Part shown: piece after piece, positions 28,576 through 58,864 of the stretch | Layout of the letters: each line of letters begins with the position of its first letter | Position numbering within the stretch: position 1 is the stretch's first letter | Assembly: GCA_012839205.1 (NCBI GenBank) | Contig: DUNT01000050.1 | Coordinates: 3,965 to 67,964 of the forward strand | DNA from: Clostridiaceae bacterium | GTDB lineage: Bacteria; Bacillota; Clostridia; DSM-8532 | Direction: 5' to 3' | DNA length: 64,000 bases | Translations under genes and position numbers: made by a program | The notes under the pieces: model-generated | Databases searched by the model: none | Seen by the model: the letters and a program-made list of their open reading frames with translations, nothing else | What the model was told of the DNA's origin: nothing

Positions 28576-31500
28576 ATGGTCCATGAAGTAAAAACGGGCA
28601 GAACAAAAAGGATGAGTTTTGCTCGCATCAAAGAAGTCCTTGACATGCCAAACCTGATTGAGATTCAGAAGAACTCATACCAGTACTTTCTTGAAGAGGG
28701 CTTGAAAGATGTATTAAAAGATGTATCTCCTATCACCGATTACACCGGTAATCTGATTATGGAATTTATCGGCTACACTCTGGAGACCGATAATATTAAG
28801 TATTCGGTTGAAGAATGCAAGGAGAGAGACACAACCTATTCCGCACCTTTAAAAGTTAAGGTTCGCCTTATTAATAAGGAAACCGGTGAGGTTAAGGAAC
28901 AGGAAATATTTATGGGCGATTTCCCGCTGATGACCGAGACAGGAACCTTTGTCATAAACGGAGCAGAGCGTGTTATCGTAAGCCAGCTGGTTCGTTCTCC
29001 CGGCGTATATTACTCCAAGGAGAAGGATAAGCATGGAAACAATCTTTTTTCAAATACTGTTATTCCATACCGGGGAGCCTGGCTTGAATATGAAACAGAC
29101 TCAGCTGAGGTTATTTATGTTAGAATTGACCGGACAAGAAAGCTGCCCATTACTCAGTTCTTACGCGCGTTGGGGTATGGGACTGATGCTGAGCTGATTG
29201 GCCTGTTGGGAGAAGAGCCCAAGCTACTGGCCACCATAACAAAAGATGGAACAAAGAGCAGAGAAGAGGGTCTGTTCGAAGTATACAAACGTTTACGTCC
29301 CGGAGAGCCACCCACCGAAGAAAGCGCTTCTACTTTACTAAACAATTTATTTTTTGATCCCAGACGTTACGATCTTTCTAATGTAGGGCGTTATAAGTTC
29401 AATAAAAAGTTGGCACTGGCAAATCGTATCCGTAATCAGATAGCTGCTGAGGATATTAAGGATATAAACAGTAAAAAGGTTTTGGTTAAGGCCGGTCGGG
29501 AAATAAGTGAGGAAATGGCATGGGAAATCCAAAATTCCGGCATTAATACCGTTCATGTCGATGTGGAAGGCAGATCGGTAAAGGTTACAGGCAATCTTAC
29601 AGTTGATATTAAAGACTATATTCCGTTTGATCCGGCATTGGCTGGAATAAACGAGAAGGTTCGCTATGATGTACTTAAAACAATTCTGGACCAAAACAAA
29701 GATGCCGATGAATCTCAACTTATTGCGATTCTTAAAGAAAACAGTGATGCTCTGATGCCTAAGAATATTACCAAGGAAGACATAGTTGCAACTGTCAATT
29801 ATATTCTTAATCTTGACCACGGAATTGGGCATATAGATGATATTGACCATTTAGGCAACCGTCGCCTGCGCTCTGTTGGAGAGCTTCTGCAAAATCAGTT
29901 CCGCATAGGGCTTGCCCGTATGGAAAGGGTTGTAAGAGAGCGAATGACTATTCAGGATATTGATGCGGTTACCCCGCAGGCTCTTATAAACATTCGCCCT
30001 GTAGCAGCTGCAATAAAAGAGTTTTTTGGGTCCAGCCAATTATCCCAGTTTATGGATCAGACAAATCCCTTGGCCGAGCTGACACATAAGCGTCGTTTAA
30101 GTGCATTGGGTCCCGGAGGACTTTCCCGTGACCGTGCAAGTTTTGAGGTTCGTGACGTTCACCATTCTCACTATGGTCGTATGTGTCCCATAGAGACTCC
30201 TGAAGGTCCTAATATCGGCCTGATTGGTTCTTTAAGCACCTATGCCCGTATTAATGAATATGGTTTTATTGAAGCTCCTTATCGTAAGGTAGTAAACGGG
30301 CAGGTTACCGATATAACTGAATATATGACTGCTGATGTTGAGGATATCTATATGGTGGCAGAGGCAAACGAGCCTCTGGATGATGACGGGTACTTCATAA
30401 GCAAGCGTGTAGGCTGTCGTTACCAGGATCAGATTCTGGAAGTTGATAAAGAAAAGATAGACTATATGGATGTTTCTCCGAAACAATTGGTTTCAGTTGC
30501 TACCGCAATGATTCCTTTCCTTGAAAACGATGACGCCAACCGTGCTCTGATGGGTTCAAACATGCAGCGTCAGGCAGTTCCGCTGATAAAGCCTGAGACT
30601 CCTATTGTCGGTACGGGGATAGAATATCGTGCAGCCAAGGATTCAGGCGTGTGTGTAATAGCGAAAAATGACGGCGTGGTTGAAAAAGTTACAGCCGACG
30701 AAATAGTAGTTAAAACCAGCAATGGTCTGAAAGATTATTATAATTTGTTAAAATATAAGCGTTCCAATCAGGGCACCTGTATTAACCAAAGACCTATCGT
30801 CAGAAAAGGTGAAAAGGTAAAAGCAGGGGATGTCTTAGCTGATGGACCGTCAACTGATAACGGTGAAATCGCTCTTGGCAAGAATGTTCTTGTAGGGTTT
30901 ATGACCTGGGAAGGTTATAACTATGAGGATGCCATCCTGATTTCCGAAGAACTTGTACGTGATGATGTATATACTTCAATTCACATTGAGGAATACGAAT
31001 CAGAAGCCCGTGACACAAAACTGGGTCCGGAAGAAATAACCCGTGATATACCCAATGTAGGCGAGGATTCTTTGAAGGATCTGGATGAACGGGGAATAAT
31101 CAGAATTGGAGCGGAGGTTCGTTCTGGCGATATTCTGGTAGGTAAGGTTACACCTAAAGGTGAAACCGAACTTACTGCCGAAGAAAGACTGCTGCGGGCT
31201 ATATTCGGTGAAAAAGCACGTGAAGTCCGTGATACTTCTTTAAGAGTTCCTCATGGTGAATCAGGTATTGTTGTCGATGTTAAGGTGTTTACCCGAGAAA
31301 ACGGCGATGAGCTGACTCCCGGTGTAAATATGCTTGTACGTGTTTATATTGCTCAAAAGAGAAAAATCTCTGTAGGCGACAAAATGGCCGGACGCCATGG
31401 TAATAAAGGCGTTATTTCAAGAATTCTGCCCATAGAGGATATGCCTTTCCTGCCTGATGGCACCCCTTTACAGATAGTATTGAATCCGTTGGGTGTTCCT

Positions 31501-32310
31501 TCCCGTATGAATATCGGACAGGTGCTGGAAGTGCATTTAGGTTATGCTGCCAAGGTTCTTGGCTGGAAGATTGCATCTCCTGTATTCGATGGGGCAAGAG
31601 AAGAGGACATTTTTGAAACCCTGGAGAAGGCTGGACTTCCGAAAGACGGTAAAACTGTTCTGTATGATGGCCGAACCGGGGAACCTTTCGATAATCGTGT
31701 AACAGTAGGTTATATGTATTACCTGAAATTGGCTCACCTGGTTGATGATAAGATTCATGCCCGTTCAACAGGACCTTATTCATTGGTAACTCAGCAGCCA
31801 TTGGGAGGAAAAGCCCAATTTGGCGGCCAGCGTTTCGGTGAGATGGAGGTTTGGGCTCTGGCAGCCTATGGAGCAGCTTATTCTCTCCAGGAAGTTCTTA
31901 CTGTTAAATCCGATGACGTGGTAGGACGTGTTAAAACCTATGAAGCAATTGTCAAGGGTGAAAATGTACCCGAACCCGGTATTCCGGAATCATTCAAAGT
32001 TCTTATGAAGGAGCTTCAGAGTCTTGCCCTGGATGTTAAGGTATTTAGCGATATGCGTGAGGAAATTGAGATAAAAGAATCGGTTTATGATGATATGGAA
32101 GAGCTTGATGTCAATATTGAAGGGCGTGAAGATGAGACCATGTCCTACATTGACCTGGAGGACGAGGAAGGTCAAAATATTATAGACGACGAGTTTGAGA
32201 TAGATTCACTGGACATCGGCGATATCCCGGAAGGTGCAGAACTGGACGAGGACAGTGTAGGACAGATTCTCGGCATAGAAGATGAAGATAATGCTGATGA
32301 TGAAATATAG
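28576..32310 (+). CDS. rpoB: DNA-directed RNA polymerase beta subunit
   Basis: 1244 aa with conserved blocks such as [22 protein letters not shown] and MNIGQVLE. Highly acidic C-terminal tail. Confidence 0.98.
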
Positions 32311-32324
32311 GAGGTGGACAGGCG

Positions 32325-35300
32325 ATGTTTGAGTTAAACAATTTTGATGCTATAAAAATAGGTCTTGCCTCCCCGGAAAAAATCCGTGAATGGTCAAGAG
32401 GAGAGGTTAAGAAGCCTGAAACCATTAACTACAGGACTTTAAAACCCGAGCGTGACGGCTTATTCTGTGAAAGGATTTTTGGTCCCACAAGGGATTGGGA
32501 GTGTCATTGTGGTAAGTATAAGCGAGTCAGATATAAAGGGATAATCTGTGACAGGTGCGGTGTAGAAGTAACCCGTTCAAAAGTGCGCCGTGAACGGATG
32601 GGGCATATTGAACTGGCTGCTCCTGTTTCTCATATATGGTATTTTAAAGGGATACCCAGCCGTATGGGCCTTTTGTTGGACATGTCTCCCAGAGCTCTTG
32701 AAAAGGTACTATATTTTGCTTCGTATGTTGTTATTGACCCCGGAAGCACTCCTCTTTCTCAAAAACAGGTATTAAACGAGAAAGAATACCGGGAAAGTAT
32801 TGAGAAGTTTGGAAGTAATTTCAGAGCCGGTATGGGTGCTGAGGCAATTAAAGAGCTTCTAGCAACAATGGATCTTGATACAAATGCGAATGAGCTCAGG
32901 GAAGAAATAGAGACCTCAAACGGACAAAAGAAAATCCGGGCTATTAAACGCCTTGAAGTCGTAGAAGCATTCCGACTATCGGGGAATAAACCCGAATGGA
33001 TGATTCTGGATGTAGTTCCTGTTATCCCTCCTGAGCTGCGTCCCATGGTTCAGCTGGACGGCGGACGTTTTGCCACATCTGACTTGAATGACCTTTACAG
33101 AAGAGTTATAAATCGAAACAACCGTCTCAAAAGATTGTTGGATTTAGGCGCCCCGGAGATAATTGTCAGAAATGAAAAGCGTATGCTGCAGGAAGCTGTA
33201 GATGCACTTATTGATAATGGTCGTCGTGGTCGCCCTGTAACTGGCCCGGGTAACCGCCCGTTAAAATCCCTTTCGGATATGTTAAAGGGAAAACAAGGCC
33301 GTTTCCGTCAAAACCTTTTAGGAAAGCGTGTTGACTACTCAGGTCGATCGGTTATCGTGGTGGGTCCCGAACTGAAAATTTATCAGTGCGGCCTTCCAAA
33401 GGAAATGGCATTGGAGCTTTTCAAGCCCTTCGTTATGAAGAAACTTGTAGAAGGCGGCCTTGCTCATAATATAAAGAGCGCAAAGCGTATGGTTGAACGT
33501 GTAAAGCCGGAAGTATGGGACGTTTTGGAAGAGGTTATAAAAGGGCATCCTGTACTTTTAAACCGTGCTCCTACACTGCACAGACTTGGTATCCAGGCAT
33601 TTGAACCTGTATTGGTAGAGGGCCGTGCAATTAAACTCCATCCTCTGGTTTGTACTGCCTACAATGCAGACTTTGACGGAGACCAAATGGCTGTTCACGT
33701 TCCTTTATCAGCCGAAGCCCAAGCAGAGGCCCGAATTTTGATGCTATCGGCCAACAACCTGTTAAAGCCACAGGATGGTAAACCTGTTACTGTTCCTACT
33801 CAGGACATGGTATTGGGCAGCTACTATCTTACTATAGAAAAGAAGGCTGAATATGATGCGGATGGAAATGTTACCAATGGAGTTATAGGTGAGGGTAATT
33901 CTTTCTGCAGCCCGGAAGAAGCCATAATGGCTTATCAGACTAATTTACTCAGTCTGCATGCCCGGATTAAGGTTAAAGTTAAAAGAGAAGTTGACGGTGT
34001 TATGAAAAGTAAGATTGTTGAAACCACCGTTGGAAAAATTATATTTAACGAGGCTGTACCTCAGAACCTGGGATATGTTGACAGAACTAATCCAGAAACT
34101 ATGTTTGATTTCGAAGTTGACTTCTTAGTTGGCAAGAAGGAATTGGGTAAGATTATTGAGCGTTGCATTAATGTCAACGGTTCCAACAAGACAGCTGAGG
34201 TTCTTGACAAAATCAAGACCTTAGGATTTAAGTACTCGACAAAGGGTGCTGTAACCATTGGCGTTACCGATATGACTATACCTGAAGTTAAACAGAGGTA
34301 TTTGGACGAGACTGATAAAAAAGTTGATGAAATCGAGAGACATTATAAAAATGGTCTGTATAACAGGGATGAACGGAAGAGAGCTATTATTTCAGCCTGG
34401 AACAAAACCACAGAGGATATTAAAAATGCTCTGATTGCCTCATTGGACCGTTTCAATCCTGTGTACATGATGTCTCAGTCGGGTGCCCGTGGTAATATCA
34501 ACCAGATCAGACAATTAGGAGGCATGCGGGGACTTATGGCAGATACTTCCGGAGAGACTCTTGAGATTCCAATAAGATCAAACTTCCGTGAAGGTCTCAA
34601 CGTTTTGGAATACTTTATATCAACCCACGGGGCCAGAAAAGGTCTGGCAGATACAGCTCTTCGTACCGCTGACTCGGGATACCTTACACGTCGTCTGGTT
34701 GACGTAGCCCAGGAGGTTATTATCCGTGAAGAGGACTGTGGTACCGATGAAGGTATAGATATTTCACCTATTGTAATTAGCGGGAAAACAATAGAAAGAT
34801 TAGCTGAACGGCTGACTGGCCGGTATTCTTCCAAGGAAATCACCGATCCAAATACCGGAGAGGTTATTGTTGAAGAAAATCAGCTTATAACTGAAGAGCT
34901 TGCAGAAAAAATTGAGAAAGCCGGTTATAAGAAAGTAAGTATCCGTTCGGTATTAACCTGCTGTTCCAGAGTAGGTGTTTGCGCTAAATGCTATGGCATT
35001 AATCTGGCCAATGGCGAGAAATGCAACGCGGGTGAAGCGGTTGGCTTTATCGCTGCTCAGTCGATAGGCGAGCCGGGAACCCAGCTTACCATGCGTACCT
35101 TCCATACAGGAGGTGTTGCCGGTGAGGACATTACACAGGGTCTGCCCCGTGTTGAGGAACTATTTGAAGCCCGTAAGCCTAAAGGATTGGCAATAGTATC
35201 CGAAATAGCAGGTACCGTTCATATTAAGGAATCCAAGAAGAAGAGGGAGATAGAGGTTGTTAATAATGAGACTGGCGAAGTCAAAACATACCTTATCCCA

Positions 35301-35867
35301 TATGGGTCCTCAATTAAGGTTATGGACGGGGAAGAAATTGAAGCTGGTGACGAGCTTACAGAAGGTTCAGTCAACCCTCACGACATCTTGAAGATTAAAG
35401 GTGTCCAGGCTGTGCAGAGATATCTTCTGCAGGAGGTTCAGAAGGTTTACAGACTTCAGGGTGTTGATATAAACGATAAGCATATTGAGGTTATTGTCCG
35501 TCAAATGCTTCGAAAGGTAAAGATTGATGATTCCGGAGATACCGACATGTTGCCGGGCAGTCTTGTTGATATGTTTGAATTTGAAGACAAGAACAAATCT
35601 GCTGAAGAACAGGGTTTAAGACCTGCAACAGGAAAGCGTGCACTATTGGGTATTACCAAGGCATCCCTTGCCACTGAGTCATTCTTATCGGCTGCATCAT
35701 TCCAGGAGACCACCAGGGTTCTGACAGAGGCGGCTATAAAAGGCAAGATTGACCCGTTAATTGGTCTTAAGGAGAATATCATTATTGGTAAACTTATTCC
35801 TGCGGGTACAGGTCTTTCAAAATACCGGGATATTGATGTGGACATCAACGAAGTTGAAGTAAGTTAA
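32325..35867 (+). CDS. rpoC: DNA-directed RNA polymerase beta' subunit
   Basis: 1180 aa with a Zn finger [23 protein letters not shown] and the catalytic [12 protein letters not shown] motif. Confidence 0.98.
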
Positions 35868-38790: not shown

Positions 38791-38819
38791 TTGTAATAAA
38801 TTCAACAAAATGTTACAAT
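38791..38819 (+). promoter_or_regulatory. Candidate promoter of the kinase/Tad-like operon (TTGTAA-17 nt-TACAAT)
   Basis: -35 at 38791-38796, 17-nt spacer, -10 at 38814-38819, in an AT-rich 250-nt spacer. The leader is about 170 nt. Confidence 0.45.
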
Positions 38820-38989
38820 ACTTTACAGCTACCATTAAAAAGTGAAATTTTGTAAGGATAATTAAGATTTCCCTCATCTTTTGATGGCGGGTAAGGATTA
38901 TTATTGCCAGCAGGATATATCTCCCATTCCGAGTTAACCACCTCACCCGACAGAAATCTTTAATCTTGGTAACTGTTGAGGTTGTCATA

Positions 38990-40414
38990 ATGATAAAAGG
39001 AGATACTATTGCTGAGAAATATAGGATTGTCGAATGTTTGGGCGAGGGAGGCACTTCAGCTGTATATCTTGCAGAAAATATAGCATTAAATAATCTCTGG
39101 GCAATTAAAGTTCTATCTAAAAGCAGCCGCTGGATTTCTTTTGATGTGGATGAAATAGGAATACTAAAAAATCTTAGCCATCCTATGTTACCAAGAATAG
39201 CTGATTTAACAGAGGATTCGGATAATTATTACATAGTTATGGACTACTTTTCGGGCTCAAATTTACTGAAAATAATAGAGTGCCAGGGAAGAATCTCTGA
39301 AAGAACGCTACTTAAATGGACAAAGGATATATTGAATGTACTAAGATATCTTCACAGCAGAACACCCCCTGTAATATACAGGGATTTAAAGCCTGCAAAT
39401 CTGATTGTGGATGACTCAGACCAATTAAGGCTTGTTGATTTTGGTACTGCCAGATACTACTCTGATGAAATATCAGAAGATACGGTCTACATCGGTACTC
39501 AAGGCTATGCGGCACCGGAACAGTATGGAATCGGGCAGACTGATCAGAGAACGGATCTTTACAGCCTGGGCATGACAATTATTCATCTTGCTACAGGAAT
39601 TCATCCTGTAAAGCTAGGTTCGGACAGTATAAGAGATTCACTTAGAAAAGCAGGTATCACACAAAATTTCATACGTTTTGTTTTAAAACTTACACAAACC
39701 GATCCATTAAAAAGGTTTCAGACCTGTGAAAAAGCCATTGAAGAACTGGACAGAATAATGAACCCCGAAAGACAATTTTTAAAGAATTACATTGCGAAAA
39801 AAGCCAAGAAAAACTTCAGGGGAGTAATAGCAATTGCTTCGGTGCTGCCGGCAAGCGGGGTAACAAGTCTGTGCCTTGCCATTGGGAAACACTTGTCAGA
39901 TAACAAAGTCAATTCTGTATTGGTTGAACTTAATTCCAGCGGGGATTTTAACAGAATGAGACAGTACCTGGATGAGCTGGGAGAAGTAAAATATCAAAGT
40001 GATAACCGGTTTGAAACTAATAATCTTATATTCTATCCCAATGCATCAGACTTCGGGGAGGTATCCAGAAAAGGCATCGATGCTGTAATCCTTGATGTTG
40101 GACAACTGAATGCTGAAAGAAAAATCAGCCAATTCAATCATGCTGATATCAGAATCGTTGTGTGTCCGTGTATGCCATGGAAATATGATCTTTTTTCAGA
40201 ATGTAACAAGAATATTGAGTCCTCGACAAAAAATGAATGGATATATGCGGCAAGTGTTACCCAAAGCTATGAAGGACAAAAATTAAAAAAACTTCTGGGC
40301 AGCAATAAACTGGTATTGTATTCCGCTGTTAAAAACCCTTTTTATCTGAGTATAGAAGAGCATAAGCGTATAGGGACTGCGCTTAATAAAATATGTGCAT
40401 TAGCAGGTAAATAG
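38990..40414 (+). CDS. Hanks-type Ser/Thr protein kinase fused to a C-terminal MinD/ParA(TadZ)-like domain lacking a P-loop
   Basis: Kinase motifs occur in order: LGEGGTSAVY, WAIKVL, YRDLKPANL, DFGTAR, GYAAPEQ. The C-terminal ~190 aa (FRGVIAIASVLPASGVTSLCLAIG...IDAVILDVG) has the beta-helix-beta layout of MinD/ParA, but ASGVTS replaces GKGGxGKT. The ATG at 38990 lies 9 nt after GAGG. Confidence 0.8.
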   Translation: MIKGDTIAEKYRIVECLGEGGTSAVYLAENIALNNLWAIKVLSKSSRWISFDVDEIGILKNLSHPMLPRIADLTEDSDNYYIVMDYFSGSNLLKIIECQGRISERTLLKWTKDILNVLRYLHSRTPPVIYRDLKPANLIVDDSDQLRLVDFGTARYYSDEISEDTVYIGTQGYAAPEQYGIGQTDQRTDLYSLGMTIIHLATGIHPVKLGSDSIRDSLRKAGITQNFIRFVLKLTQTDPLKRFQTCEKAIEELDRIMNPERQFLKNYIAKKAKKNFRGVIAIASVLPASGVTSLCLAIGKHLSDNKVNSVLVELNSSGDFNRMRQYLDELGEVKYQSDNRFETNNLIFYPNASDFGEVSRKGIDAVILDVGQLNAERKISQFNHADIRIVVCPCMPWKYDLFSECNKNIESSTKNEWIYAASVTQSYEGQKLKKLLGSNKLVLYSAVKNPFYLSIEEHKRIGTALNKICALAGK

Positions 40415-40435: not shown

Positions 40436-41368
40436 GTGATTCTAAGGCCACAACGTTATAGGATCCTACTGGGTTTTCTGGCGGGTCTTTCGCTTTCTGT
40501 AATTATTATAGGGGCAAGCTATCTTTACTATAGGAATAATACATACCAGCTGGCTGAACAAGAGAAGCTTGAAATCAGACGAATGGCAGTGGAAGAATAC
40601 ATACAAAACAATCCTACAAGTCTGGTATATACAGTTACAACAGATAAAAAGTCAGGAGAGGTTTTACTGGATAAAGATATTGCTCCTGCCGAAATAAATG
40701 CAGGCCTTATACCGGCCGATGCTGTTACTGATCCTTCTTTAGCTGTTGGTAAGGTAATAAGATGCAGTATTATGTCTAATACGATAATAACCGAATCTCT
40801 TATGTATGAAAAGCAGGATTATCCACATGATATGAGACTTATGGAATACTCGGTTTTGAACCTTCCACAAAAGCTTCAAAAATTTGAATTCATCGATATC
40901 AGAATCATGTTTCCAAATGGCCTGGATTATATTGTTCTTTCCAAAAAGCAGGTTACTGATTTAGAAAGATTGGAAGAAAACCAAAAAAACACAATATGGT
41001 TCCATGCCGGTGAGGAGGAAATACTCAGGATGGCCAGTGCTATTGTTGACGCAAGTATCGTAGAGGGTACTGTCCTGTATGCGGTACCGTATATAGCGCC
41101 GGAAATTCAGGATGAGGCAGTCAGAACATACCCGGTAAACCCCGGGGTGCAAAAACTGATTTTGGAAGACCCCAACATTATCAACAAAGCCGTGACAGAG
41201 CTGGAATCCCGCAATCGTGAATTGTTTGAGAAAAGAATTAACGAAGACTACCAGTATGCCGGGAGGAATAAAGTATTTGCTGAGAACAATAATGCAATTT
41301 CACCTGATGATTTTGAGAGTAAAGATATTGATTTGGTAACAGAGGCGAGTGTAGAAGATAATCTTTAG
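40436..41368 (+). CDS. CpaB/RcpC-like SAF-domain pilus assembly protein
   Basis: 310 aa with a GTG start after GGAGG and one N-terminal TM helix. A SAF-like segment follows (VYTVTTDKKSGEVLLDKDIAPAEINAGLIPADAVTDPSLAVGKVIRCSIMSNTIITESL), as in Flp-pilus CpaB proteins. Confidence 0.6.
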   Translation: MILRPQRYRILLGFLAGLSLSVIIIGASYLYYRNNTYQLAEQEKLEIRRMAVEEYIQNNPTSLVYTVTTDKKSGEVLLDKDIAPAEINAGLIPADAVTDPSLAVGKVIRCSIMSNTIITESLMYEKQDYPHDMRLMEYSVLNLPQKLQKFEFIDIRIMFPNGLDYIVLSKKQVTDLERLEENQKNTIWFHAGEEEILRMASAIVDASIVEGTVLYAVPYIAPEIQDEAVRTYPVNPGVQKLILEDPNIINKAVTELESRNRELFEKRINEDYQYAGRNKVFAENNNAISPDDFESKDIDLVTEASVEDNL

Positions 41369-41378
41369 GAGGTATTAA

Positions 41379-42026
41379 ATGAATGTAGTATTTCTGGGAG
41401 AGAGTACAGAGGCAAAACGGTTTTTAATATTATGCCTTGCTAAAATCGCATCATGCTATGCAAATATTACTGTATTATCCAAGAAACCATACTCATATGG
41501 TGAAATCACCGATGAATATGAGTATTGCGGGATTGATTTTGTACTGCTTAAAGATGGGGAAAACCCTCTGTCAAAGATTTCAGAGTCTGCCGGTAATTTT
41601 GTGGACGCAGAAGAATATATAGATGTCCCGGAGGATTTTAAGGTAATAGCAGTAAGTGAAACAACCAGAGATAAACTTGAAAGTTGCATAGAATTAGCCG
41701 GGGAGTATACCCGGTGTCATCCATCCTTAAATCTCTATATTGTCTACCTGAATATAATGGAGTACTGTAGAATTGGAAAACGATTCTTAAGCAGTTTCTG
41801 GGAGCATAGCTTACCTAGTACTATTGAGATTGCTGGTACTGATGAAATATACTTTGAAGAAAAAAACCATATTGTTATGATAGAAAGTCAGTATTTGAAC
41901 AGATTATCCATCAGAAGTTTGTCATTACCCATCAAAACAGTATTCAGGAATATAATCCTGTATATTTTTTCTTTAGACACCAAAGAAGTAAAAGCAGTGT
42001 TTAAAAGAGCTGAAAGGATGAAATAG
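41379..42026 (+). CDS. Hypothetical protein, possible P-loop-less MinD/TadZ-like module
   Basis: 215 aa behind an AGGAGG RBS. It starts with beta-strand/helix/beta-strand (VVFLGESTEAKRFLILCLAKIASCYANITVLS) but has no Walker A. Confidence 0.4.
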   Translation: MNVVFLGESTEAKRFLILCLAKIASCYANITVLSKKPYSYGEITDEYEYCGIDFVLLKDGENPLSKISESAGNFVDAEEYIDVPEDFKVIAVSETTRDKLESCIELAGEYTRCHPSLNLYIVYLNIMEYCRIGKRFLSSFWEHSLPSTIEIAGTDEIYFEEKNHIVMIESQYLNRLSIRSLSLPIKTVFRNIILYIFSLDTKEVKAVFKRAERMK

Positions 42027-42027
42027 G

Positions 42028-42837
42028 ATGCAGGTTGCGTTCTGGTCAAATATGCACGGGCAAGGTGCCACAAGCGCTGCAACTGCAGCGGTTGCTTCTG
42101 TCATTGCGCAAAAAACAGCATTAAGAACCCTGATTGCTCATAACCAAATTGAAAAAAGTGCCATAGAAGGCTACTTGTTTAAAGAACCAAAGCAGCATAA
42201 CAGTATCAGAAACTTAAACAATCAGGGTATTGACGCACTTTTAAGACTGGTTAAAAACGGAAGACTCAAAACGGAGATGATTGCAGACTACACATATTCT
42301 ATCCTGAGAAATCATCGGATGGACTTGCTTTTGGGGACTGAGAAAAAACAAAAAATGACACAGGAAGATCAGGAGCTTTTTTTAAGTATACTCAGCTTTG
42401 CAAAAGAATTTTATGATCTCATAATACTGGACGTCCACAGCGGTCTAAAAGAGAATAATAGTTTGAGCCTCCTTAAAAGTTCGGACATAATAGTGTTTTG
42501 TATTAATCAGAACAGTTGTTTGCTGGATGATTTAGCCGGTATTTTTCATGAGCATGAGTTCCTGAAACAAAAGCAAGCAGCATTCGTTTTAGCGCGATAC
42601 GAAAAACATAGTGGCATAACAGGCGCAAGTATTGCGAGAAGGTATGGAATAAAGAAAAAATCTGTTTTTAAAATACCTAATTGTGCCCATTTAATGGATG
42701 CCTTGAACTCCGGAAGAGTATATGAATATGTTGCCTTTAATCACAATACAAAAAGAGGCGAAGAAAAAGAGGTGCTCGGCTCTTTAAACCGGCTCTGTGA
42801 GTATATTATTGAGGGGTGCGATAAAAATTGCCGCTGA
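42028..42837 (+). CDS. TadZ/CpaE-like MinD/ParA-fold protein with degenerate Walker A
   Basis: 269 aa. VAFWSNMHGQGATSAATAAVASVIA occupies the deviant-Walker-A position, and YDLIILDVHSG occupies the Walker-B position. It sits immediately upstream of the CpaF-like ATPase, as in Tad loci. Confidence 0.6.
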   Translation: MQVAFWSNMHGQGATSAATAAVASVIAQKTALRTLIAHNQIEKSAIEGYLFKEPKQHNSIRNLNNQGIDALLRLVKNGRLKTEMIADYTYSILRNHRMDLLLGTEKKQKMTQEDQELFLSILSFAKEFYDLIILDVHSGLKENNSLSLLKSSDIIVFCINQNSCLLDDLAGIFHEHEFLKQKQAAFVLARYEKHSGITGASIARRYGIKKKSVFKIPNCAHLMDALNSGRVYEYVAFNHNTKRGEEKEVLGSLNRLCEYIIEGCDKNCR

Positions 42838-44702
42838 TGATGAACCTGATAATAATTATATTAATATTGTTTGGTCTGGGTATATCCCTGTACTTTTTCT
42901 TTGTTTCAAGAAAGTATTACAGAGAGACAGTGGAAAGAGAAGATCCCCAGAAGTACACAATTCCTGGTCTTATAGAATATGTTAAGGATTGTATTAATGA
43001 GATAACAAGAACAAATCTATTCGAGCTTGGTCTCAGTGAAGTGGAGTTTAAAAAGCAAACCAACCAAAGAGCCGAACTGAAGAAAGCTCTCAAAGTATGC
43101 ATGCATGGCTCCATAGTGGATAAGCAGTTTGTCAAGGCTTTTATCTATGATATTCTGCATGCTTATATTCCAAATGAGAAAACCAATTCAATTATCCCTT
43201 TTAATAACCCATACCTTCTTTCAACAAAGGATAAGTTTGCAATTCTGATTTACATGACAAAAAAGGAACATGGAGCCAATGCCCTTTCGTATCTGATTGA
43301 TACCTTTCAACTGGACAGGCTTAAGAAAAACGAAAATGGAGAGTATTCCTATTATATATCCAAACAAGAAATCAATGATATCTATAACAGAATGGACTTA
43401 ATTCTTACAGGGGAAGACAAACTTGAGATCATCACCCAAACTGTATATGAACAGTACAAAGGGTTAGGTGTCATAGATGAAATCAGGGATATGAATATTG
43501 ACGGGGTTTCTGCCGGGGTTTCAGGGGTACCCGAAGACTTCATCGAATTCTCAGATTTTAGGGAGCATATCAATGGAGTTAACCGCCACGAAAAAAACTA
43601 TGAAAGTATTTGGCTTTTTTATAAAGGAAAATCCATAAAACTTGATTTTATAGGTTTCGAAAGCGAAAGTGAGCTAAAAAGAGTTTGTCAGATAATATAC
43701 CGCTACAATCGGGGAGGTCAGCTTTCGGAGGCTACCGGCTACAGAGTCAACGAGATGAAGGACGGAAGCCGTATTTTGGTTGTTAGGCCACCGTTTTCTG
43801 AATCATGGGCATTCTTTGTCCGCAAATTTTATATTAAAAACGTAACGCTGGAAACGCTTATACAAGATGAAAACGCTTATTTGCCTATTAATCTGATCAA
43901 ATACATCGTAAAGGGCGGTATGATTACTGCTGTAACAGGGCAGCAAGGAAGCGGGAAAACCACAATGCTTATGGCTATGATTGAACATATTTATGCCACA
44001 TTAACTCTTCGTATTCAGGAAATGGCCTTTGAACTTAATCTCAGAAAACTATATCCCAGAAGAAATATTCTGTCCTTCAGAGAAACCGAAACAATTTCAG
44101 GACAAATGGGTCTTGATATTCAGAAAAAGACAGATGGCAGCGTAAACATACTTGGTGAAGTGGCCACCGACCCGGTGGCGGCATGGATGATACAAATGTC
44201 TCAGGTGGCTTCGTTATTTACCCTCTTTACCCATCATGCCAAAACCACGCGGGATCTGGTTTATTCGCTTAGAAACTCATTATTAAAATGCGAGATGTTT
44301 AATAATGAGAAAATAGCTGAACAGCAGGTAGTATCGGTTTTAGATTTTGACATACATCTTGCAAGAGACTATGAAGGTAATAGATATATTGAACGCATCA
44401 CTGAGATAGTAGAGCTTCCGGACATACCTCTGCCTGGTGATTTTGTCTATAAAATTAATCTCAGCGAAAAAACAGCTTCTTTCATGGAAACCACTGCTGA
44501 GTATTATAACAAGATGACTGACAAGAAAATCTTTGAGTGTCGTAATATTATTGAGTTCAGAAATGGACAATATGTTGCGGTTAATCCTGTTACAGAAGAA
44601 AGAGCAGAGCAAATGAAACGGGCAATGACAAGGAAAGATGCTCAGCAATTCGATGATTATATGTATAAGTATTTTAGCCTGCAAAGTGAGGTGAGAGTAT
44701 GA
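42828..44702 (+). CDS. CpaF/TadA-like (T2SS-E/VirB11 superfamily) secretion ATPase with N-terminal TM anchor
   Basis: 624 aa. The N-terminus LIIIILILFGLGISLYFFFV is hydrophobic. YKGLGVIDEIRDMNIDGVSAG aligns with the CpaF GLGPLEPLL...DImVNG block. Walker A is GQQGSGKTT, the Walker-B region is ILGEV, and the His-box-like segment is FTLFTHHAKT. Confidence 0.8.
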   Translation: MPLMMNLIIIILILFGLGISLYFFFVSRKYYRETVEREDPQKYTIPGLIEYVKDCINEITRTNLFELGLSEVEFKKQTNQRAELKKALKVCMHGSIVDKQFVKAFIYDILHAYIPNEKTNSIIPFNNPYLLSTKDKFAILIYMTKKEHGANALSYLIDTFQLDRLKKNENGEYSYYISKQEINDIYNRMDLILTGEDKLEIITQTVYEQYKGLGVIDEIRDMNIDGVSAGVSGVPEDFIEFSDFREHINGVNRHEKNYESIWLFYKGKSIKLDFIGFESESELKRVCQIIYRYNRGGQLSEATGYRVNEMKDGSRILVVRPPFSESWAFFVRKFYIKNVTLETLIQDENAYLPINLIKYIVKGGMITAVTGQQGSGKTTMLMAMIEHIYATLTLRIQEMAFELNLRKLYPRRNILSFRETETISGQMGLDIQKKTDGSVNILGEVATDPVAAWMIQMSQVASLFTLFTHHAKTTRDLVYSLRNSLLKCEMFNNEKIAEQQVVSVLDFDIHLARDYEGNRYIERITEIVELPDIPLPGDFVYKINLSEKTASFMETTAEYYNKMTDKKIFECRNIIEFRNGQYVAVNPVTEERAEQMKRAMTRKDAQQFDDYMYKYFSLQSEVRV

Positions 44703-46732
44703 ATACATATGTCATAATCGGAGTGTCTTGCCTCTGTCTTGCGTTTATATTGATAATAGTAAACCTGGTTTATACAAAGAAAAGAAATAATTTGGGGGAA
44801 AACTTAAGACAGGCAGGAAAAAGGTATTTAACATTCTATATTTCACTGTATCGCAGATTCAGCAGGATTCCCATATTGAAAAAGCTCTTGCTGAATATCA
44901 GAAAAAGACTTGAAATATATACTGTTTCTGATGAAAGCAATATCAGAAAGACAACGGTTATTCTTCTTCTGCTTTCGGCTGCAGCGTATATATCCATTGT
45001 AATTGTTTTCTGGATTCTTACCCGGGACTTGCTGATTTTAATTCTGTTTGCAATACTTTTGTCTTTTATCGGAGACACAATAATAGAACTGTTTATAAGT
45101 AATCTCCAGGACAAGCTGCTCCGGCAGCAGATTAAATATCTGGAGCTTTTGAGACATAAATACTATGAGCAAAAATCTGTCGAAGATGCCAATCTGGAGG
45201 CATGTAACCTGCTGAACAGGGAAGGAACTTTTGAAGTTTATACTCAGGCAGAGCGGATAAATGACATTCTTTTTTCCAAAGATGTGGAAGAGGAGCTGGA
45301 GAAATATTACGAAACAGCCCCCAATAAATATTTTAAGATGCTGGCAGGTATAATCTTCATTACCAAGGAATATGGAGACACCTTTGTAAAGGATAGTTCT
45401 GTTTTTATCAGGTGCATAACATATCTTGGCAGCGAAATCAAAGCTGAATTGTATAAACGGGAAAAACTGAAATACGCTTTAAAGAGCCTGACCACCATAT
45501 CTCTTCTTCCCCTGTTCTTCTTAAAACCCTTAAGAAATTGGGCATCAGGAAGTTTCGCACCCCTGGAATCCTTTTATTCCAGCAGAATGGGCATTATCCT
45601 GGGCATGGCAACAATATTGACCTCAATCGTTTGCTATATGGTTTTAAGAAGGCTGCAGCGTTTTGATAATCATATAAGTACCGGATTTGTAAAAAAATCG
45701 TTTGAAGAACGGTTATATAAAAAATTTCTGCATTCTGCAGTGGACAGGCTGGTACCAAGACAGTATTCAAAGCAGTCACAATATTTGACAGAACTTATTA
45801 AAAACGCTATGGCACCTGTTAATATATATACACTGTATGTACGAAGACTTTTTATTGGTTTCATAGGGTTTGTTTTTGGTATTTTCATGTTTTTGGGGTT
45901 AAATGCATACACCAGATATTCGATTCTTTATTTGCCTCAAATGCCGGAAGGTTATCTGGGAGGGCAACTTTCAGCCCAAGAATACGAAAGGCTTAAAAGC
46001 ATCACAGATTTTGACAGGAAAATCATTCTGAGCTTAGGCAAAAACCTGAATGAGGATTTGGTACTGGAGAAATTGGATGAAAACCAACAATTGAATAGAC
46101 AGGAAGTAACAGCTGCTCATGAAAGAATCAATAAAAAAATTCATATGCTTTCCAATAATATATTCTGGTGGTGGCAGCTTATTATATGCTTCTTGTTTTT
46201 TATTGCAGGATATTGGGTTCCAATCATCAGTCTTGTTATTATGGCAAAGGCAAGAAGAATAGATATGGAAGATGAAGTATCTCAGTTTCAGACAATTATC
46301 CTTATGTTAATGCATATGAACAGGATTCACGTTCAGGAAATTCTGGAGTGGATGGAAGCCTTTTCAGTCCATTTTAAAGAACCCTTACAAAAATGTATCT
46401 TGAATTTCAGCTCGGGGCCGTATGAGGCACTGGAAGAGCTTAAAGCGGAAGTTGGGTTTTCTCCTTTTCTGGCTATAATAGACAATCTTCAGCTGGCCGC
46501 TGCAGACCTGGAGGTGGCAAAGGCCTTTGAAGAGCTGGAAAACGAGATGAGTTTTAATCGTGAAAGTCGTAAAGACACAAATGAAAGAATAGTGGAGAGA
46601 AAGAAAAACCTGGGTAATATTATAGGCTTTTTGCCAGCATATATGCTGATTATCCTATACCTTATAATCCCAATGATAGTATCGGGGATGAATAGTATTT
46701 CAGCATTTTATAAACAAATAATGCAAATATAA
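44699..46732 (+). CDS. Polytopic membrane protein, fused TadB/TadC-like (GspF/T2SS-F type) platform
   Basis: 677 aa with several TM clusters separated by two long helical cytoplasmic regions. The C-terminal third (FQTIILMLMH...EALEELKAEVGFSPFLAIIDNLQLA...NLGNIIGFLPAYMLIILYLIIPMI) follows the T2SS-F repeat pattern. ATGA overlap with the ATPase gene. Confidence 0.6.
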   Translation: MNTYVIIGVSCLCLAFILIIVNLVYTKKRNNLGENLRQAGKRYLTFYISLYRRFSRIPILKKLLLNIRKRLEIYTVSDESNIRKTTVILLLLSAAAYISIVIVFWILTRDLLILILFAILLSFIGDTIIELFISNLQDKLLRQQIKYLELLRHKYYEQKSVEDANLEACNLLNREGTFEVYTQAERINDILFSKDVEEELEKYYETAPNKYFKMLAGIIFITKEYGDTFVKDSSVFIRCITYLGSEIKAELYKREKLKYALKSLTTISLLPLFFLKPLRNWASGSFAPLESFYSSRMGIILGMATILTSIVCYMVLRRLQRFDNHISTGFVKKSFEERLYKKFLHSAVDRLVPRQYSKQSQYLTELIKNAMAPVNIYTLYVRRLFIGFIGFVFGIFMFLGLNAYTRYSILYLPQMPEGYLGGQLSAQEYERLKSITDFDRKIILSLGKNLNEDLVLEKLDENQQLNRQEVTAAHERINKKIHMLSNNIFWWWQLIICFLFFIAGYWVPIISLVIMAKARRIDMEDEVSQFQTIILMLMHMNRIHVQEILEWMEAFSVHFKEPLQKCILNFSSGPYEALEELKAEVGFSPFLAIIDNLQLAAADLEVAKAFEELENEMSFNRESRKDTNERIVERKKNLGNIIGFLPAYMLIILYLIIPMIVSGMNSISAFYKQIMQI

Positions 46733-46756
46733 ACCATGAATGCAGGAGGTAAAGCT

Positions 46757-47335
46757 ATGGAAGGCAATTTGTCTAAAGCACTTTGGCTGGGAGTCTCAAT
46801 TCTCCTTTTTATTGCAGTTGTAACTGTAGGGCTGAGTATTTTCGGAGGAATGAAAGAAGTGAGCAATCTGGCCAATGATCGTATTGGGTCCATATCCCAA
46901 AGCATGGCAGAGGAAGAATTCAGAATATATGACGGAAAGGAAGTAAGAGGGGATGATGTCCTTTCAGCACTGGGAACTTTTGGCGGCAGAAGCGGTGAAG
47001 TAATCGTCTTTGTGGCAACCTTGGGCTCCAATGGCGGAAATCCCGTAAATTTAAATCTTTCTACAGGCACCGGGTTAAACAGTTCCAGCTATAACCAATA
47101 CATTTCAAAAACAACAGGTACACTGAGGACAGACAATAAATGTGTAATACTGTCAGTAAACAGCGGCGAACTTCTGTCAAGCGTCAGTAAGACTGTTATG
47201 GATGCGGAAAGAAGGGACTGTGAGAATCCCAATCTTACATCCAAATATATCAATCCCTCCGGAAAATTTATGTCCCATTTAGTTTACGATACAAACTTAA
47301 AAATTCGTGGTGTAATCTTTGCACAAAAGGACTAA
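46757..47335 (+). CDS. Putative pilin-like protein (short polar N-terminus plus one hydrophobic helix)
   Basis: The ATG at 46757 lies 7 nt after AGGAGG. The N-terminus is MEGNLSKALWLGVSILLFIAVVTVGLSIFGG, followed by a ~160-aa Ser/Gly/Asn-rich soluble part. Confidence 0.5.
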   Translation: MEGNLSKALWLGVSILLFIAVVTVGLSIFGGMKEVSNLANDRIGSISQSMAEEEFRIYDGKEVRGDDVLSALGTFGGRSGEVIVFVATLGSNGGNPVNLNLSTGTGLNSSSYNQYISKTTGTLRTDNKCVILSVNSGELLSSVSKTVMDAERRDCENPNLTSKYINPSGKFMSHLVYDTNLKIRGVIFAQKD

Positions 47336-47337
47336 TT

Positions 47338-47760
47338 ATGAGTGGTAATATTGAAAAAATATTATATCTGGGTTTAGCAGTTGTTTTACTTGGGATGGCT
47401 TTTACATTTTTCTTTTCCGGCTATAACAACTACCGGGATTATATTACAAAAAGCAATATAATTATTAATGATGACAGGATGGTAGCTATTACAGAGGGGA
47501 AGGATAAGTCTGTAATAAACGGGACAGAGGTTATACATCAGGTGCTTGAATTCCAAAAACTTGAGCAAAATAATCAACTGCTTGATTTTTATTCGGATTT
47601 AACTGAATCTCCGTATCAAAGCCAAGCTGAAATATGGGTTTCCGGAATATATGCAATTGATATTAAAACATCAGATGTAGACGCTGCTTCCCTCTATGGT
47701 ATTGTATTTGAAAAAGACAATTCGGGACAAATAATAAAAGTCCAGTATAGCTTAAAGTAG
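47338..47760 (+). CDS. Putative pilin-like protein, N-terminal paralogue of the preceding gene
   Basis: 140 aa. The N-terminus MSGNIEKILYLGLAVVLLGMAFTFFF shares the pattern M-x-G-N-[LI]-x-K-x-L-[WY]-L-G with the previous ORF. Confidence 0.5.
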   Translation: MSGNIEKILYLGLAVVLLGMAFTFFFSGYNNYRDYITKSNIIINDDRMVAITEGKDKSVINGTEVIHQVLEFQKLEQNNQLLDFYSDLTESPYQSQAEIWVSGIYAIDIKTSDVDAASLYGIVFEKDNSGQIIKVQYSLK

Positions 47761-47773
47761 AAAAGGAGAGGAC

Positions 47774-48328
47774 ATGGACAGAGCTTTTTGGAAGGTACTG
47801 GCGTTTTTATTATGTGCTGTTTTAATGTTTTTGCTTCCTTTAATGACCATTTTGGACAGGCAGGATGATATTGCCTACAATATAGTTCTGACAGAGTGTA
47901 ACAGATTTGTCGATGCCTGCAGGGATACAGGGTATATAACACCGGGCATGTATTCTGAGTTTACGAATCGCATCAGATCAACGGGGAACACTTACAGTAT
48001 AAAACTGTCACATATAAAAAGGTCGGTAAGTCCGGTCTATAAACAGATTAACGGAGTTTTGGACTTCACGGGTGAATATGAAATAACCCATATAAACTAT
48101 GGCGAACATGACATATTGGGAGTCTTGTATCCAAATAATCCGGTGCAGTCAGAACATGATAAATCAAGACGCTATGATATGAGTATGGGCGACCTTCTTT
48201 TTGTCGAAGTTCAGAACAATGGCAAGACAATGGCAACAGCAATTCGTGACATGATGATGTTCAGGAATACTGATTATCCTGCTATATTTGTTCGTTCTGG
48301 AGGGATGATAAGAAATGAGGCTTACTAG
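47774..48328 (+). CDS. Hypothetical protein with N-terminal TM/signal-anchor helix (minor-pilin/TadE-like candidate)
   Basis: 184 aa behind an AGGAGAGG RBS. N-terminus MDRAFWKVLAFLLCAVLMFLLPLMTIL. Confidence 0.4.
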   Translation: MDRAFWKVLAFLLCAVLMFLLPLMTILDRQDDIAYNIVLTECNRFVDACRDTGYITPGMYSEFTNRIRSTGNTYSIKLSHIKRSVSPVYKQINGVLDFTGEYEITHINYGEHDILGVLYPNNPVQSEHDKSRRYDMSMGDLLFVEVQNNGKTMATAIRDMMMFRNTDYPAIFVRSGGMIRNEAY

Positions 48329-49316
48329 TTTAGCAATTACCTTCCTGATTATCGTTTCTCCCTTTATTTATATAAGTGCACAGGAAACTGAAGTTGCCAT
48401 ACAAGACCAAAGACTGAGGTATTATTACGACAATATAATAGATAACGCTGTTGCAGATGCTGCATTTATTCTTTCAAACAAGGGTACAGATTTTACATAT
48501 ACAGGTAATGTAAACATATCAGATGCCAGAAAACTTGCCGCTGAGGCCTTCTTTGATTCTGTATACTATTCATTCAATGCTAAGGGCAATCAATCTTTAA
48601 TGGCTCGGGTGGATGCCTGCATACCGGTTCTTGTTTTTTTGGAAAGTGAAGGCTTTTCTCTATACGTTCTTGATGAATATAAAAACATAAATGGACAAAA
48701 TGAGATCAAACATCTGTGGTTTCCTGTGCAACACTATATCGGAGAAGTTATATCCGACAGATTTGTTATTCGCTATACTCTTGAAAACAAAGTTTATGTA
48801 TTTGATATAATAGAACAGACTTTGATGGAAGGCGATTACAGCGAATTTAGAGATATAATTCCTTTCTTTAAAGAGAAGCAGGATTTTGAAAATCTACGAA
48901 TAACAGCTATAAAGAACTCTGTTGTAGAAAAGATTATGGCATATATGAATTATTATAATCAGTGGGCATTGGGGAAAAGTCTCTCTGTTAAGTTGGAATT
49001 CCCATCCATAGAAGATGCAGACTGGAAAAGAGCTCTTACAGATGAGGGTATAATGGTCTTTACTCAGGGATTTCCTGTCCTTTCAGGCAAAAACTATAAG
49101 CACTATGCTCTGGGGGCAGCAAGGGTTATAAGAAAAGCGCCCTTAACAGGTTATACTTACCAGGGGGTATTATATTATTGCCGAACAGATTGTGCCCACT
49201 TACAAAATACTGTTATTTCGGATATAGGCTTCAACCAGGATAGCATGACTTACTTTTCTAATGCATATGAGGCGGCTGCCAGCGGGTATTTTCCCTGTCC
49301 CTTCTGCCGCCCGTAA
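48315..49316 (+). CDS. Hypothetical protein with N-terminal TM helix and C-terminal Cys4 (Ada-like zinc-binding) motif
   Basis: 333 aa. N-terminus LTSLAITFLIIVSPFIYI. The C-terminus is YYCRTDCAHL...x29...GYFPCPFCRP. A 14-nt overlap with the preceding gene. Confidence 0.45.
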   Translation: MRLTSLAITFLIIVSPFIYISAQETEVAIQDQRLRYYYDNIIDNAVADAAFILSNKGTDFTYTGNVNISDARKLAAEAFFDSVYYSFNAKGNQSLMARVDACIPVLVFLESEGFSLYVLDEYKNINGQNEIKHLWFPVQHYIGEVISDRFVIRYTLENKVYVFDIIEQTLMEGDYSEFRDIIPFFKEKQDFENLRITAIKNSVVEKIMAYMNYYNQWALGKSLSVKLEFPSIEDADWKRALTDEGIMVFTQGFPVLSGKNYKHYALGAARVIRKAPLTGYTYQGVLYYCRTDCAHLQNTVISDIGFNQDSMTYFSNAYEAAASGYFPCPFCRP

Positions 49317-58788: not shown

Positions 58789-58864
58789 GGTACGCCCGAC
58801 ACGATTCGAACGTGCGACACCAAGTTTAGGAAACTTGTGCTCTATCCAACTGAGCTACGGGCGC
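58788..58864 (-). tRNA. tRNA-Arg (anticodon CCU)
   Basis: The reverse complement is GCGCCCGTAGCTCAGTTGGATAGAGCACAAGTTTCCTAAACTTGGTGTCGCACGTTCGAATCGTGTCGGGCGTACCA. It folds as a cloverleaf: 7-bp acceptor stem, GCTC/GAGC D stem, CAAGT/ACTTG anticodon stem with loop TTCCTAA, GCACG/CGTGT T stem with TTCGAAT, and an encoded CCA. Confidence 0.93.

Follow-up and report, generated by a model that had tools for sequence, protein, structure and literature searches.

The subject of this analysis is g1, a forward-strand gene in a 64,000-nt stretch of contig DUNT01000050.1 (positions 3,965 to 67,964; assembly GCA_012839205.1, a Clostridiaceae bacterium), which is called the window throughout. The 474-aa product of g1 joins a Hanks-type Ser/Thr kinase to a TadZ-like domain of the MinD/ParA type, and the gene heads a cassette resembling those of Tad (type IVc) pili. 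With a probability of roughly 60% we assume that the fusion protein docks on the machine encoded by the cassette and that the docked kinase would phosphorylate this machine and thereby gate it. The fusion had been proposed in an earlier note made from the sequence alone, whose author knew of no comparable protein; our literature search found no description of a kinase-TadZ/ParA fusion or of the cassette either.

A complete Hanks-type kinase at the N-terminus

The kinase domain of g1 covers residues ~4-255. The Pfam model Pkinase (PF00069) matches residues 11-244 with E = 9e-46 (156.8 bits at a cut-off of 31.7), and the nearest solved relatives in a PDB sequence search are the PknB kinase domains of S. 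aureus and M. tuberculosis. The motifs from which an apparently active kinase had been predicted in the earlier note are all found at the implied places: LGEGGTSAVY (residues 17-26, the Gly-rich loop), WAIKVL (37-42), YRDLKPANL (130-138), DFGTAR (150-155) and GYAAPEQ (172-178).

Conservation was evaluated in an alignment of 36 diverse full-length homologues (A1, 29-80% identity). Invariant positions comprise G18, G20, G21 and V25 of the Gly-rich loop, K40, the alpha-C Glu E55, Y130, D132, K134, N137, D150, G152, the activation segment residues T165 and T170, P176, E177 and R242. The catalytic set of a Hanks kinase, from the Gly-rich loop through the alpha-H/I Arg, is complete. R131 is kept in at least 90% of the homologues, which marks g1 as an RD kinase, the type activated via phosphorylation of the activation loop. 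YRD in place of HRD is a family trait. In a few close relatives the Arg of YRD is replaced by Gly, yet D132, K134 and N137 are retained. Judged by these residues the kinase lacks no catalytic element and is under selection; it is very probably active.

Scans of g1 with Pfam and NCBIfam revealed no PASTA domain or other known domain besides the kinase. The Stk1/PknB model NF033483 reaches 156.5 bits and stays far below its equivalog cut-off of 450. The sole hydrophobic peak lies at residues 278-298. It was considered as a transmembrane helix and rejected, as it forms strand 1 and helix 1 of the MinD fold with a predicted local distance difference test score (pLDDT) >90. The earlier statement that g1 has no transmembrane helix, PASTA domain or sensor domain thus holds, and its product is a soluble, cytoplasmic two-domain protein. 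The linker between the domains has no Ser or Thr in the window protein, and its modelled part (residues 262-272) shows a pLDDT <50.

More than 100 database clusters align across ~100% of g1 with 30-80% identity. These full-length relatives stem mostly from metagenome-assembled genomes (MAGs) of Clostridia (Acetivibrionales, Clostridiaceae) and are labelled only as 'serine/threonine protein kinase'. A subgroup of the kinase fusions (P0067, P0070, P0077 and P0080; 585-700 aa) has an extra, poorly conserved N-terminal extension of 100-230 aa before the kinase domain. Furthermore, Bacillus thuringiensis plasmids of ~349.6 kb (H24-H33) encode a Ser/Thr kinase with 36.6% identity to g1 residues 4-291; the match covers the kinase domain only.

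A MinD/ParA fold with a lysine-less P-loop at the C-terminus

Residues 262-474 of g1 were modelled with AlphaFold2 (AF2) from an alignment of 26 C-terminal regions, which was also used as search profile. The model reached a pLDDT of 91.6 and a predicted TM-score (pTM) of 0.88. Searching the PDB with Foldseek, nearly all of the top 50 matches were MinD, FlhG, ParA, Soj, PF-32, BcsQ, HypB or BchL, the exceptions being one SRP54 and one MeaB (probability 1.0, E from 2e-6, TM-score 0.5-0.66). Based on this model we are confident that the C-terminal domain (C-domain) adopts a MinD/ParA fold, and the structure comparison, which the earlier note had named as a check, confirms a P-loop-NTPase fold as predicted there. 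No Pfam or NCBIfam model matches the C-domain. The profile gave weak PDB matches, mostly to SIMIBI NTPases (SRP54 with E = 2e-3; also PF-32, Soj, ParA, Wzc and MinD), in which G-i-G-v-T of the C-domain aligns on G-S-G-K-T of the SIMIBI NTPases, including SRP54.

A search of 1.84 billion representative sequences with the profile yielded 2,742 matches at E <= 1e-3, 1,743 of them at E <= 1e-10; the family comprises about 2,700 clusters at 50% identity. The P-loop was inspected in 302 members. Gly 290 is conserved in 296 of them and Thr 292 likewise in 296. Position 291, the place of the Walker lysine and a Val in g1, is occupied by V (114), T (93), A (47), C (21), S (16) or L (7), with a single K, so that it is not Lys in 301 of the 302. 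The acid of Walker A' (switch I) at position 313 is E in 276 and D in 19 members. In the Walker B-like strand D369 is found in 301 and G371 in 296. A deviant Walker A of the type KGGxGK[ST] is not present in the family: the P-loop lysine is gone, and at the signature position no lysine is conserved either.

The earlier note had described the domain as P-loop-less, with ASGVTS (residues 288-293) in place of Walker A. As regards the lysine this is right, but the P-loop is not missing, since G290 and T292 are kept. By its sequence the C-domain possesses a P-loop without lysine while retaining the metal- and phosphate-contacting residues. With T292, E313 and D369 conserved, the domain may still bind nucleotide, and binding of ATP seems possible because a lysine-less variant P-loop is also found in TadZ.

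The best 150 matches of the C-domain fall into four architectures: a receiver-like N-domain of ~110 aa plus linker (48), an unrecognised N-terminus (42), a kinase fusion (34, of which 20 were newly classified and 14 had been seen in an earlier full-length search) and a stand-alone domain (24). In a rough neighbour-joining tree most of the kinase-type C-domains are located in two clades, with 88 and 18 members, suggesting a small number of kinase-fusion events.

The ten-gene cassette

g1 is the first gene of a ten-gene operon on one strand, whose nine following genes are separated by gaps of at most 21 nt or overlap. The same ten genes occur in identical order in eight other kinase-type loci from Clostridia to Paenibacillus (L001, L003, L004, L005, L008, L009, L028 and L035), and in nine chromosomal copies of the cassette g1 is of the kinase type. 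The nearest relative is L003 from an uncultured Ruminiclostridium, with 74% identity; L009 belongs to Thermoclostridium, L028 to Paenibacillus hubeiensis and L035 to Paenibacillus sp. J45TS6. The earlier placement of g1 at the head of a pilus-type operon is borne out by this synteny and by the CpaF homologue g5.

The secretion ATPase g5 is the best conserved protein of the cassette with about 50% identity between Clostridia and Paenibacillus. Its profile (A3) matched only CpaF in the PDB (E = 4e-12), and TIGR03819 was recognised with E = 1.4e-8. It has an intact Walker A (GQQGSGKT), a ~260-aa N-terminal extension and a transmembrane helix at residues 1-29; such membrane anchoring is unusual for TadA/CpaF proteins. 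The CpaB/RcpC-like g2 matches Pfam SAF with E = 1e-6 and TIGR03177 (pilus_cpaB) weakly, and its transmembrane helix comprises residues 7-32. g6 shows no Pfam or PDB sequence similarity, and its role as TadB/TadC-type platform is inferred from its position.

g4 precedes the ATPase as tadZ does. Its profile matched the ParA structure 3ea0 (E = 0.0017) in the PDB and the C-domain of g1 in hhalign (90% probability, E = 1.7e-6). The P-loop of g4, WSNMHGQGATS, likewise has no Walker lysine, and a g4 orthologue on plasmids is annotated as 'ParA'. With BLASTP the C-domain matched neither g3 nor g4 significantly, so the kinship of g4 is seen only by profile-profile comparison. For g3 the hhalign probability against the C-domain is 70%, and it is possibly a further degenerate ParA-like fold. 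If so, the CpaF-like g5 may be the sole canonical NTPase of the cassette.

The small proteins g7-g10 appear pilin- or pseudopilin-like by their N-terminal helices, and no prepilin cleavage motif was recognised in them. In g7 (46736-47335), putatively the major pilin, a short polar leader with a conserved [S/N]-x-[S/K]-K-A-L precedes a hydrophobic helix of ~22 residues; neither a Flp-type G/XXXXEY nor another prepilin cleavage motif was recognised in g7 and its orthologues. A prepilin peptidase gene was not seen in the cassette. g10 (48315-49316) ends in a Cys-rich stretch (CRTDCAH...CPFCRP) that weakly resembles the Ada zinc-binding domain (E = 0.0014), which is odd beside an N-terminal membrane helix. 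Taken together, the sequences point to a highly divergent Tad-like cassette.

Receiver-like domain and kinase in the same slot

TadZ/CpaE and g1 have in common the MinD/ParA fold, a Walker A variant without the canonical lysine and an operon of the tad type that also encodes a CpaF/TadA ATPase; the platform gene of the g1 operon is assigned by position. In an alignment the E. rectale TadZ structure 3fkq shows SPCGGVGTST with Thr at the place of the Walker lysine. A Walker-A-like consensus of K/RGGXGXS/T has been given for TadZ (bioRxiv 10.64898/2026.07.08.737194). g1 possesses the G-x-[ST] half of this motif and, as 3fkq, no lysine within it. In contrast to the consensus, g1 has no K/R signature residue (position 286), and neither this residue nor GG is conserved in the family.

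On the sequence level the C-domain profile did not match 3fkq in the PDB, the profile of the receiver-type family did not match TadZ among the PDB sequences, and hhalign of both families against a single canonical TadZ sequence (L001) gave no signal. The link came from a structure model. P0288 of Paenibacillus agilis is a receiver-type homologue and the first gene of a cassette like that of the window. Its model (pLDDT 83) consists of a CheY-like (beta-alpha)5 N-domain, a disordered linker and a MinD-like domain, and 3fkq is the only PDB match which spans both domains (Foldseek, 471 columns, E = 2.5e-5). Receiver-type homologues at the g1 slot hence have the full two-domain architecture of TadZ, which sustains the label TadZ-like chosen in the earlier note. 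g1 differs from TadZ/CpaE in its complete Hanks kinase, which stands where TadZ has an N-terminal atypical receiver. Moreover it opens the operon, with three genes between it and the ATPase, whereas the tadZ position is held by g4. The fused domain is therefore one TadZ-like paralogue and not the sole one.

Receiver-type g1 genes were found in six cassettes on plasmids or contigs (L084, L089, L090, L091, L093 and L095). The receiver-like domain of the plasmid copies and the kinase of the chromosomal copies occupy the same slot. Since the first gene of the plasmid cassettes carries a receiver-like domain and not a kinase, g1 is best read as a TadZ-like organiser with its receiver module swapped for an active kinase. 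In evolutionary terms the N-terminal module of the TadZ-like protein would be exchangeable, being receiver-like on plasmids and replaced by a kinase in the chromosomal copies.

One candidate for a kinase-type cassette on a plasmid, L086 (Paenibacillus sp. IHB B 3084 pHD02, record 93331-94392), was rejected as it looks chromosomal: its surroundings (rnz, fpg, nfo, an ABC ATPase and a methyltransferase) match the P. hubeiensis chromosome at L028. The kinase gene of L086 is missing from the gene table and is possibly a pseudogene.

In Thermobacillus composti pTHECO01 (L085, 7587-11215) the g1 homologue is truncated and has neither strand 1 nor the P-loop. It adjoins a DDE transposase and AAA ATPase pair, which suggests an insertion sequence (IS) that entered the first gene of the cassette. 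The plasmid cassettes are followed by a gene for a protein with an S-layer-homology domain, a stalk domain or a copper-amine-oxidase N-terminal domain and then by one for a DUF5704 protein of >1,000 aa (L085 21015-25860, L089 16414-19752, L090 15310-19773, L091 15575-19721, L094 15597-19743). They possibly represent a surface protein tied to the filament and are absent from the chromosomal copy in the window.

Proposed mechanism and alternatives

In the reading we prefer, the MinD-like domain would serve as docking and organiser module, as it does in TadZ/CpaE, with the CpaF-like ATPase g5, the platform g6 and/or the paralogue g4 as docking sites on the membrane machine. The domain probably dimerises. 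Docking would bring the kinase to the machine, where trans-autophosphorylation on the activation loop (T165/T170) could take place, and the kinase would then phosphorylate machine components and so gate assembly, positioning or activity. Docking, dimerisation, substrates and regulatory outcome, including the phosphorylation-controlled assembly or positioning suggested in the earlier note, are what we infer from the domain identities, the conserved catalytic residues, the fold, the operon membership and the receiver/kinase swap.

Several observations weigh against this reading. Structurally, the C-domain is no nearer to TadZ than to MinD or FlhG (Foldseek). In L087 and L088 the receiver-type genes close clusters of a type IV secretion system (T4SS) and no Tad cassette follows, which means that the C-domain is not exclusively a module of Tad machines; its family seems, by gene context, to serve conjugation systems as well. 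In the locus L006 (9983-11401, MAG Clostridiales bacterium CTOTU40347) an intact g1 is kept in the hisI...trxB-Germane-ddl-argS neighbourhood also seen in the window, without g2-g10. This 472-aa kinase fusion is 48% identical to g1 and has every motif, so the kinase may have targets beyond the cassette. Neither an FHA-domain protein nor a PP2C phosphatase was found in the cassette with Pfam and NCBIfam. Finally, a search of g2-g10 and the C-domain for Ser/Thr residues that are specific to kinase-type cassettes gave no convincing site. Small samples gave g6 S77, g9 S84 and S137 and g10 T4 and S231 as candidates, the C-domain position 309 alone, inside a beta-strand. They were rejected as substrates, and all of them could be phylogenetic.

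As a side observation, L006 carries on the reverse strand, where g2-g10 would stand, a 307-aa gene whose product has a radical-SAM-like Cys motif.

Among the alternatives, it is well conceivable, albeit not what we expect, that the MinD-like domain, despite its missing lysine, still binds ATP and dimerises and so works as a nucleotide switch. The protein would then be controlled by its nucleotide state and not by phosphorylation alone, with the kinase modulating or reading the switch. The near-invariance of G290, T292, E313 and D369 among the 302 family members would be hard to explain for an empty pocket, and the loop of 3fkq is equally lysine-less. E. rectale TadZ reportedly dimerises, contains bound ATP-Mg and has low ATPase activity. 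On the other hand, the signature Lys/Arg of the TadZ consensus is missing too, and nucleotide binding of the C-domain is a prediction.

We regard it as unlikely that the fusion acts as a sensor of the assembly state instead, whose kinase is activated by docking or dimerisation and signals elsewhere, e.g. to transcription, envelope or sporulation. An RD kinase with invariant activation-loop Thr would suit such a function, as PknB and PrkC are RD kinases which are activated by induced dimerisation. The orphan g1 of L006 and the failure to find cassette-specific phospho-acceptor sites fit as well. However, 8 of the 9 related loci carry g1 in one operon with the machine, its receiver-type counterparts lack a catalytic output, and no evidence points to a distal target.

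Gating of the machine by the docked kinase could also concern a different kind of machine: the cassette might be a kinase-regulated device for DNA transfer, mating or secretion, derived from conjugative elements, and not an adhesive pilus. The top NCBIfam match of g5 is 'TadA family conjugal transfer-associated ATPase', and 34 plasmids, from Paenibacillus, Clostridium, Lysinibacillus, Butyrivibrio and others, carry the cassette with its long g5-type ATPase. Several of the plasmid cassettes of Bacillales and Clostridium adjoin conjugation genes. In L084 the cassette is located directly downstream of Gram-positive T4SS genes, and in L085 and L094 it shares a plasmid region with conjugative-transfer genes. 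Moreover, receiver-type g1 homologues (gene at 10001) end Gram-positive conjugative T4SS clusters not only in L087 and L088 but also in L083 and L084; these clusters comprise a MobL relaxase, VirD4, TrbL, a TraC-like protein, VirB4 and a cell-wall hydrolase. We nevertheless hold this explanation to be rather improbable. The kinase-type cassettes, including that of the window, reside amid housekeeping genes, no T4SS genes were found in the flanks of the kinase-type loci or across the 64-kb window, and a filament would be in keeping with the small proteins and their N-terminal hydrophobic helices.

That the kinase domain is a non-catalytic scaffold is very improbable, as all catalytic residues are invariant across the family and the few close relatives with Gly for the Arg of YRD keep D132, K134 and N137, even though secretion systems employ pseudokinase scaffolds such as EssB of type VIIb secretion (PMC11217815).

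As a speculative variant of kinase docking, to which we attach a low probability, phosphorylation would have superseded the nucleotide switch of a MinD-type organiser or would now drive it. A lysine-less MinD-like dimer on the platform would pair two RD kinases, and their trans-autophosphorylation would lock or release the machine and also tell targets elsewhere in the cell that the filament is assembled or engaged. If true, g1 would sense the surface or the assembly state as a self-contained kinase without an extracellular sensor, and the N-terminal module of TadZ-like proteins (receiver, kinase or none) would generally be a plug-in regulatory input for Tad-like pili and Gram-positive conjugation.

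Start site, upstream signals and surroundings

The open reading frame (ORF) of g1 has two possible starts, TTG 38966 and ATG 38990, and its stop codon is at 40412-40414. The likely start is ATG 38990, since a GAGG is located 8 nt upstream and the homologues begin at the equivalent Met. The coordinates of all features are summarized in Table 1. The perfect inverted repeat lies directly 3' of the hisE stop codon and is a probable terminator, by its sequence, which would divide the kinase operon from the his genes. A consensus terminator scan did not call this hairpin; its T-run is weak. The spacer upstream of g1 is 300 bp long and AT-rich and holds the promoter-like site. A search with Rfam upstream of the operon gave no RNA element.

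Table 1. Features of g1, its upstream region and the cassette (positions in the window).
Feature	Position	Strand	Basis
Perfect 14-bp inverted repeat AATCAGCCGGAAGA / TCTTCCGGCTGATT, 6-nt loop	38702..38735	+	read from sequence
Promoter-like site TTGTAA-17-TACAAT, extended -10 TG	38791..38819	+	consensus match only
Ribosome-binding site GAGG	38978..38981	+	8 nt before ATG 38990
g1, 474-aa kinase/TadZ-like fusion	38990..40414	+	ORF, domain searches, alignment, model
Hanks-type Ser/Thr kinase domain (Pfam residues 11-244)	39020..39721	+	Pfam Pkinase, PDB PknB-type matches
Linker, residues 256-277, Lys-rich, poorly conserved	39755..39820	+	alignment A1
C-terminal MinD/ParA-fold (TadZ-like) domain, residues 278-474	39821..40411	+	AF2, Foldseek, profile
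Variant Walker A SVLPASGVTS, residues 284-293	39839..39868	+	census of 302 members
Walker B-like strand DAVILDVG, residues 364-371	40082..40102 (= 365-371)	+	alignment, census
Family-specific [D/E/P]-W-K motif	40175..40183	+	W397 in 293/302
g2, CpaB/RcpC-like, N-terminal transmembrane helix and SAF domain	40436..41368	+	Pfam SAF, weak TIGR03177
g3, conserved 215-aa protein, family unrecognised	41379..42026	+	no Pfam match
g4, 269 aa, ParA-like, in tadZ position just upstream of the ATPase	42028..42837	+	PDB profile, hhalign
g5, 624-aa CpaF/TadA-type secretion ATPase	42828..44702	+	profile A3, TIGR03819
g6, 677-aa polytopic membrane protein	44699..46732	+	at least 6 hydrophobic segments
g7-g10, 199/140/184/333 aa, one N-terminal hydrophobic helix each	46736..49316	+	hydrophobicity

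In the window the operon lies between one group of genes that comprises DUF402, a metallophosphoesterase, hisI and hisE and a second group with a thioredoxin-reductase-like gene, ddl, argS and a Germane lipoprotein. About 3 kb upstream of the cassette there are two very large ORFs (1,244 and 1,180 aa; 28576-35867), whose sizes would fit rpoB and rpoC. A tRNA gene is found at 58791-58864 on the minus strand. The large ORFs, the tRNA gene and the checked flanks indicate that the window is a core chromosomal region.

Comparison with known systems

In Gram-positive bacteria the activation and positioning of Tad and type IV pili are poorly understood, and to our knowledge the only role described for TadZ/CpaE is that of a passive polar organiser. 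With an active Ser/Thr kinase, a TadZ-like protein would give Tad machines a direct and testable phospho-regulatory input, and the swap of receiver and kinase at one operon slot offers a natural comparison of the function of the N-terminal module. Annotation pipelines miss the C-domain family, as its kinase-fused members are named after the kinase and the rest are termed 'hypothetical protein'. They likewise miss the ten-gene Tad-like cassette in cellulolytic Clostridia, in Paenibacillaceae and on many plasmids of Bacillales and Clostridium. Cultured carriers (Paenibacillus hubeiensis ES5-4 and Paenibacillus sp. J45TS6) make experiments feasible.

A precedent for modular TadZ fusions is the TadZ-TadA protein (TadZA) of Bdellovibrio bacteriovorus, in which the MinD-like module of TadZ is fused to another enzyme and has shed its receiver. 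TadZA has no receiver domain, and targeting is provided by RomR, a separate receiver protein (bioRxiv 10.64898/2026.07.08.737194). Its fusion partner is the pilus ATPase, whereas that of g1 is a signalling kinase.

The closest sequences and structures of the kinase domain belong to PknB, PrkC and Stk1, with which g1 shares the G-x-G-G-x-S loop and the RD type. In contrast to these kinases g1 has neither a transmembrane helix nor PASTA repeats, and YRD replaces HRD. Hanks kinases encoded within secretion clusters are PpkA/Fha1 of type VI and TscD/TsdD of type VIIc/d, which are thought to control assembly by Thr phosphorylation (PMC11217815). As for g1, the gene of a Ser/Thr kinase lies inside a secretion or filament cluster. 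PpkA and TscD/TsdD are membrane-anchored, have extracytoplasmic sensor regions and act with FHA-domain readers and PPM phosphatases, whereas g1 is soluble and sensor-less, lacks FHA and phosphatase partners within the cassette and is joined covalently to a MinD-like domain.

A ParA/MinD-like spatial organiser of a conjugative T4SS is VirC1 of the Agrobacterium Ti plasmid (PMC11407121). This parallels the receiver-type g1 relatives with which Gram-positive T4SS clusters end. VirC1 has an intact Walker A and is a canonical ATPase; it is not known to be fused to a kinase or receiver domain. None of the closest known systems joins a soluble active kinase to a TadZ-like domain, and g1 looks like an undescribed, phosphorylation-based control of a Tad-like machine.

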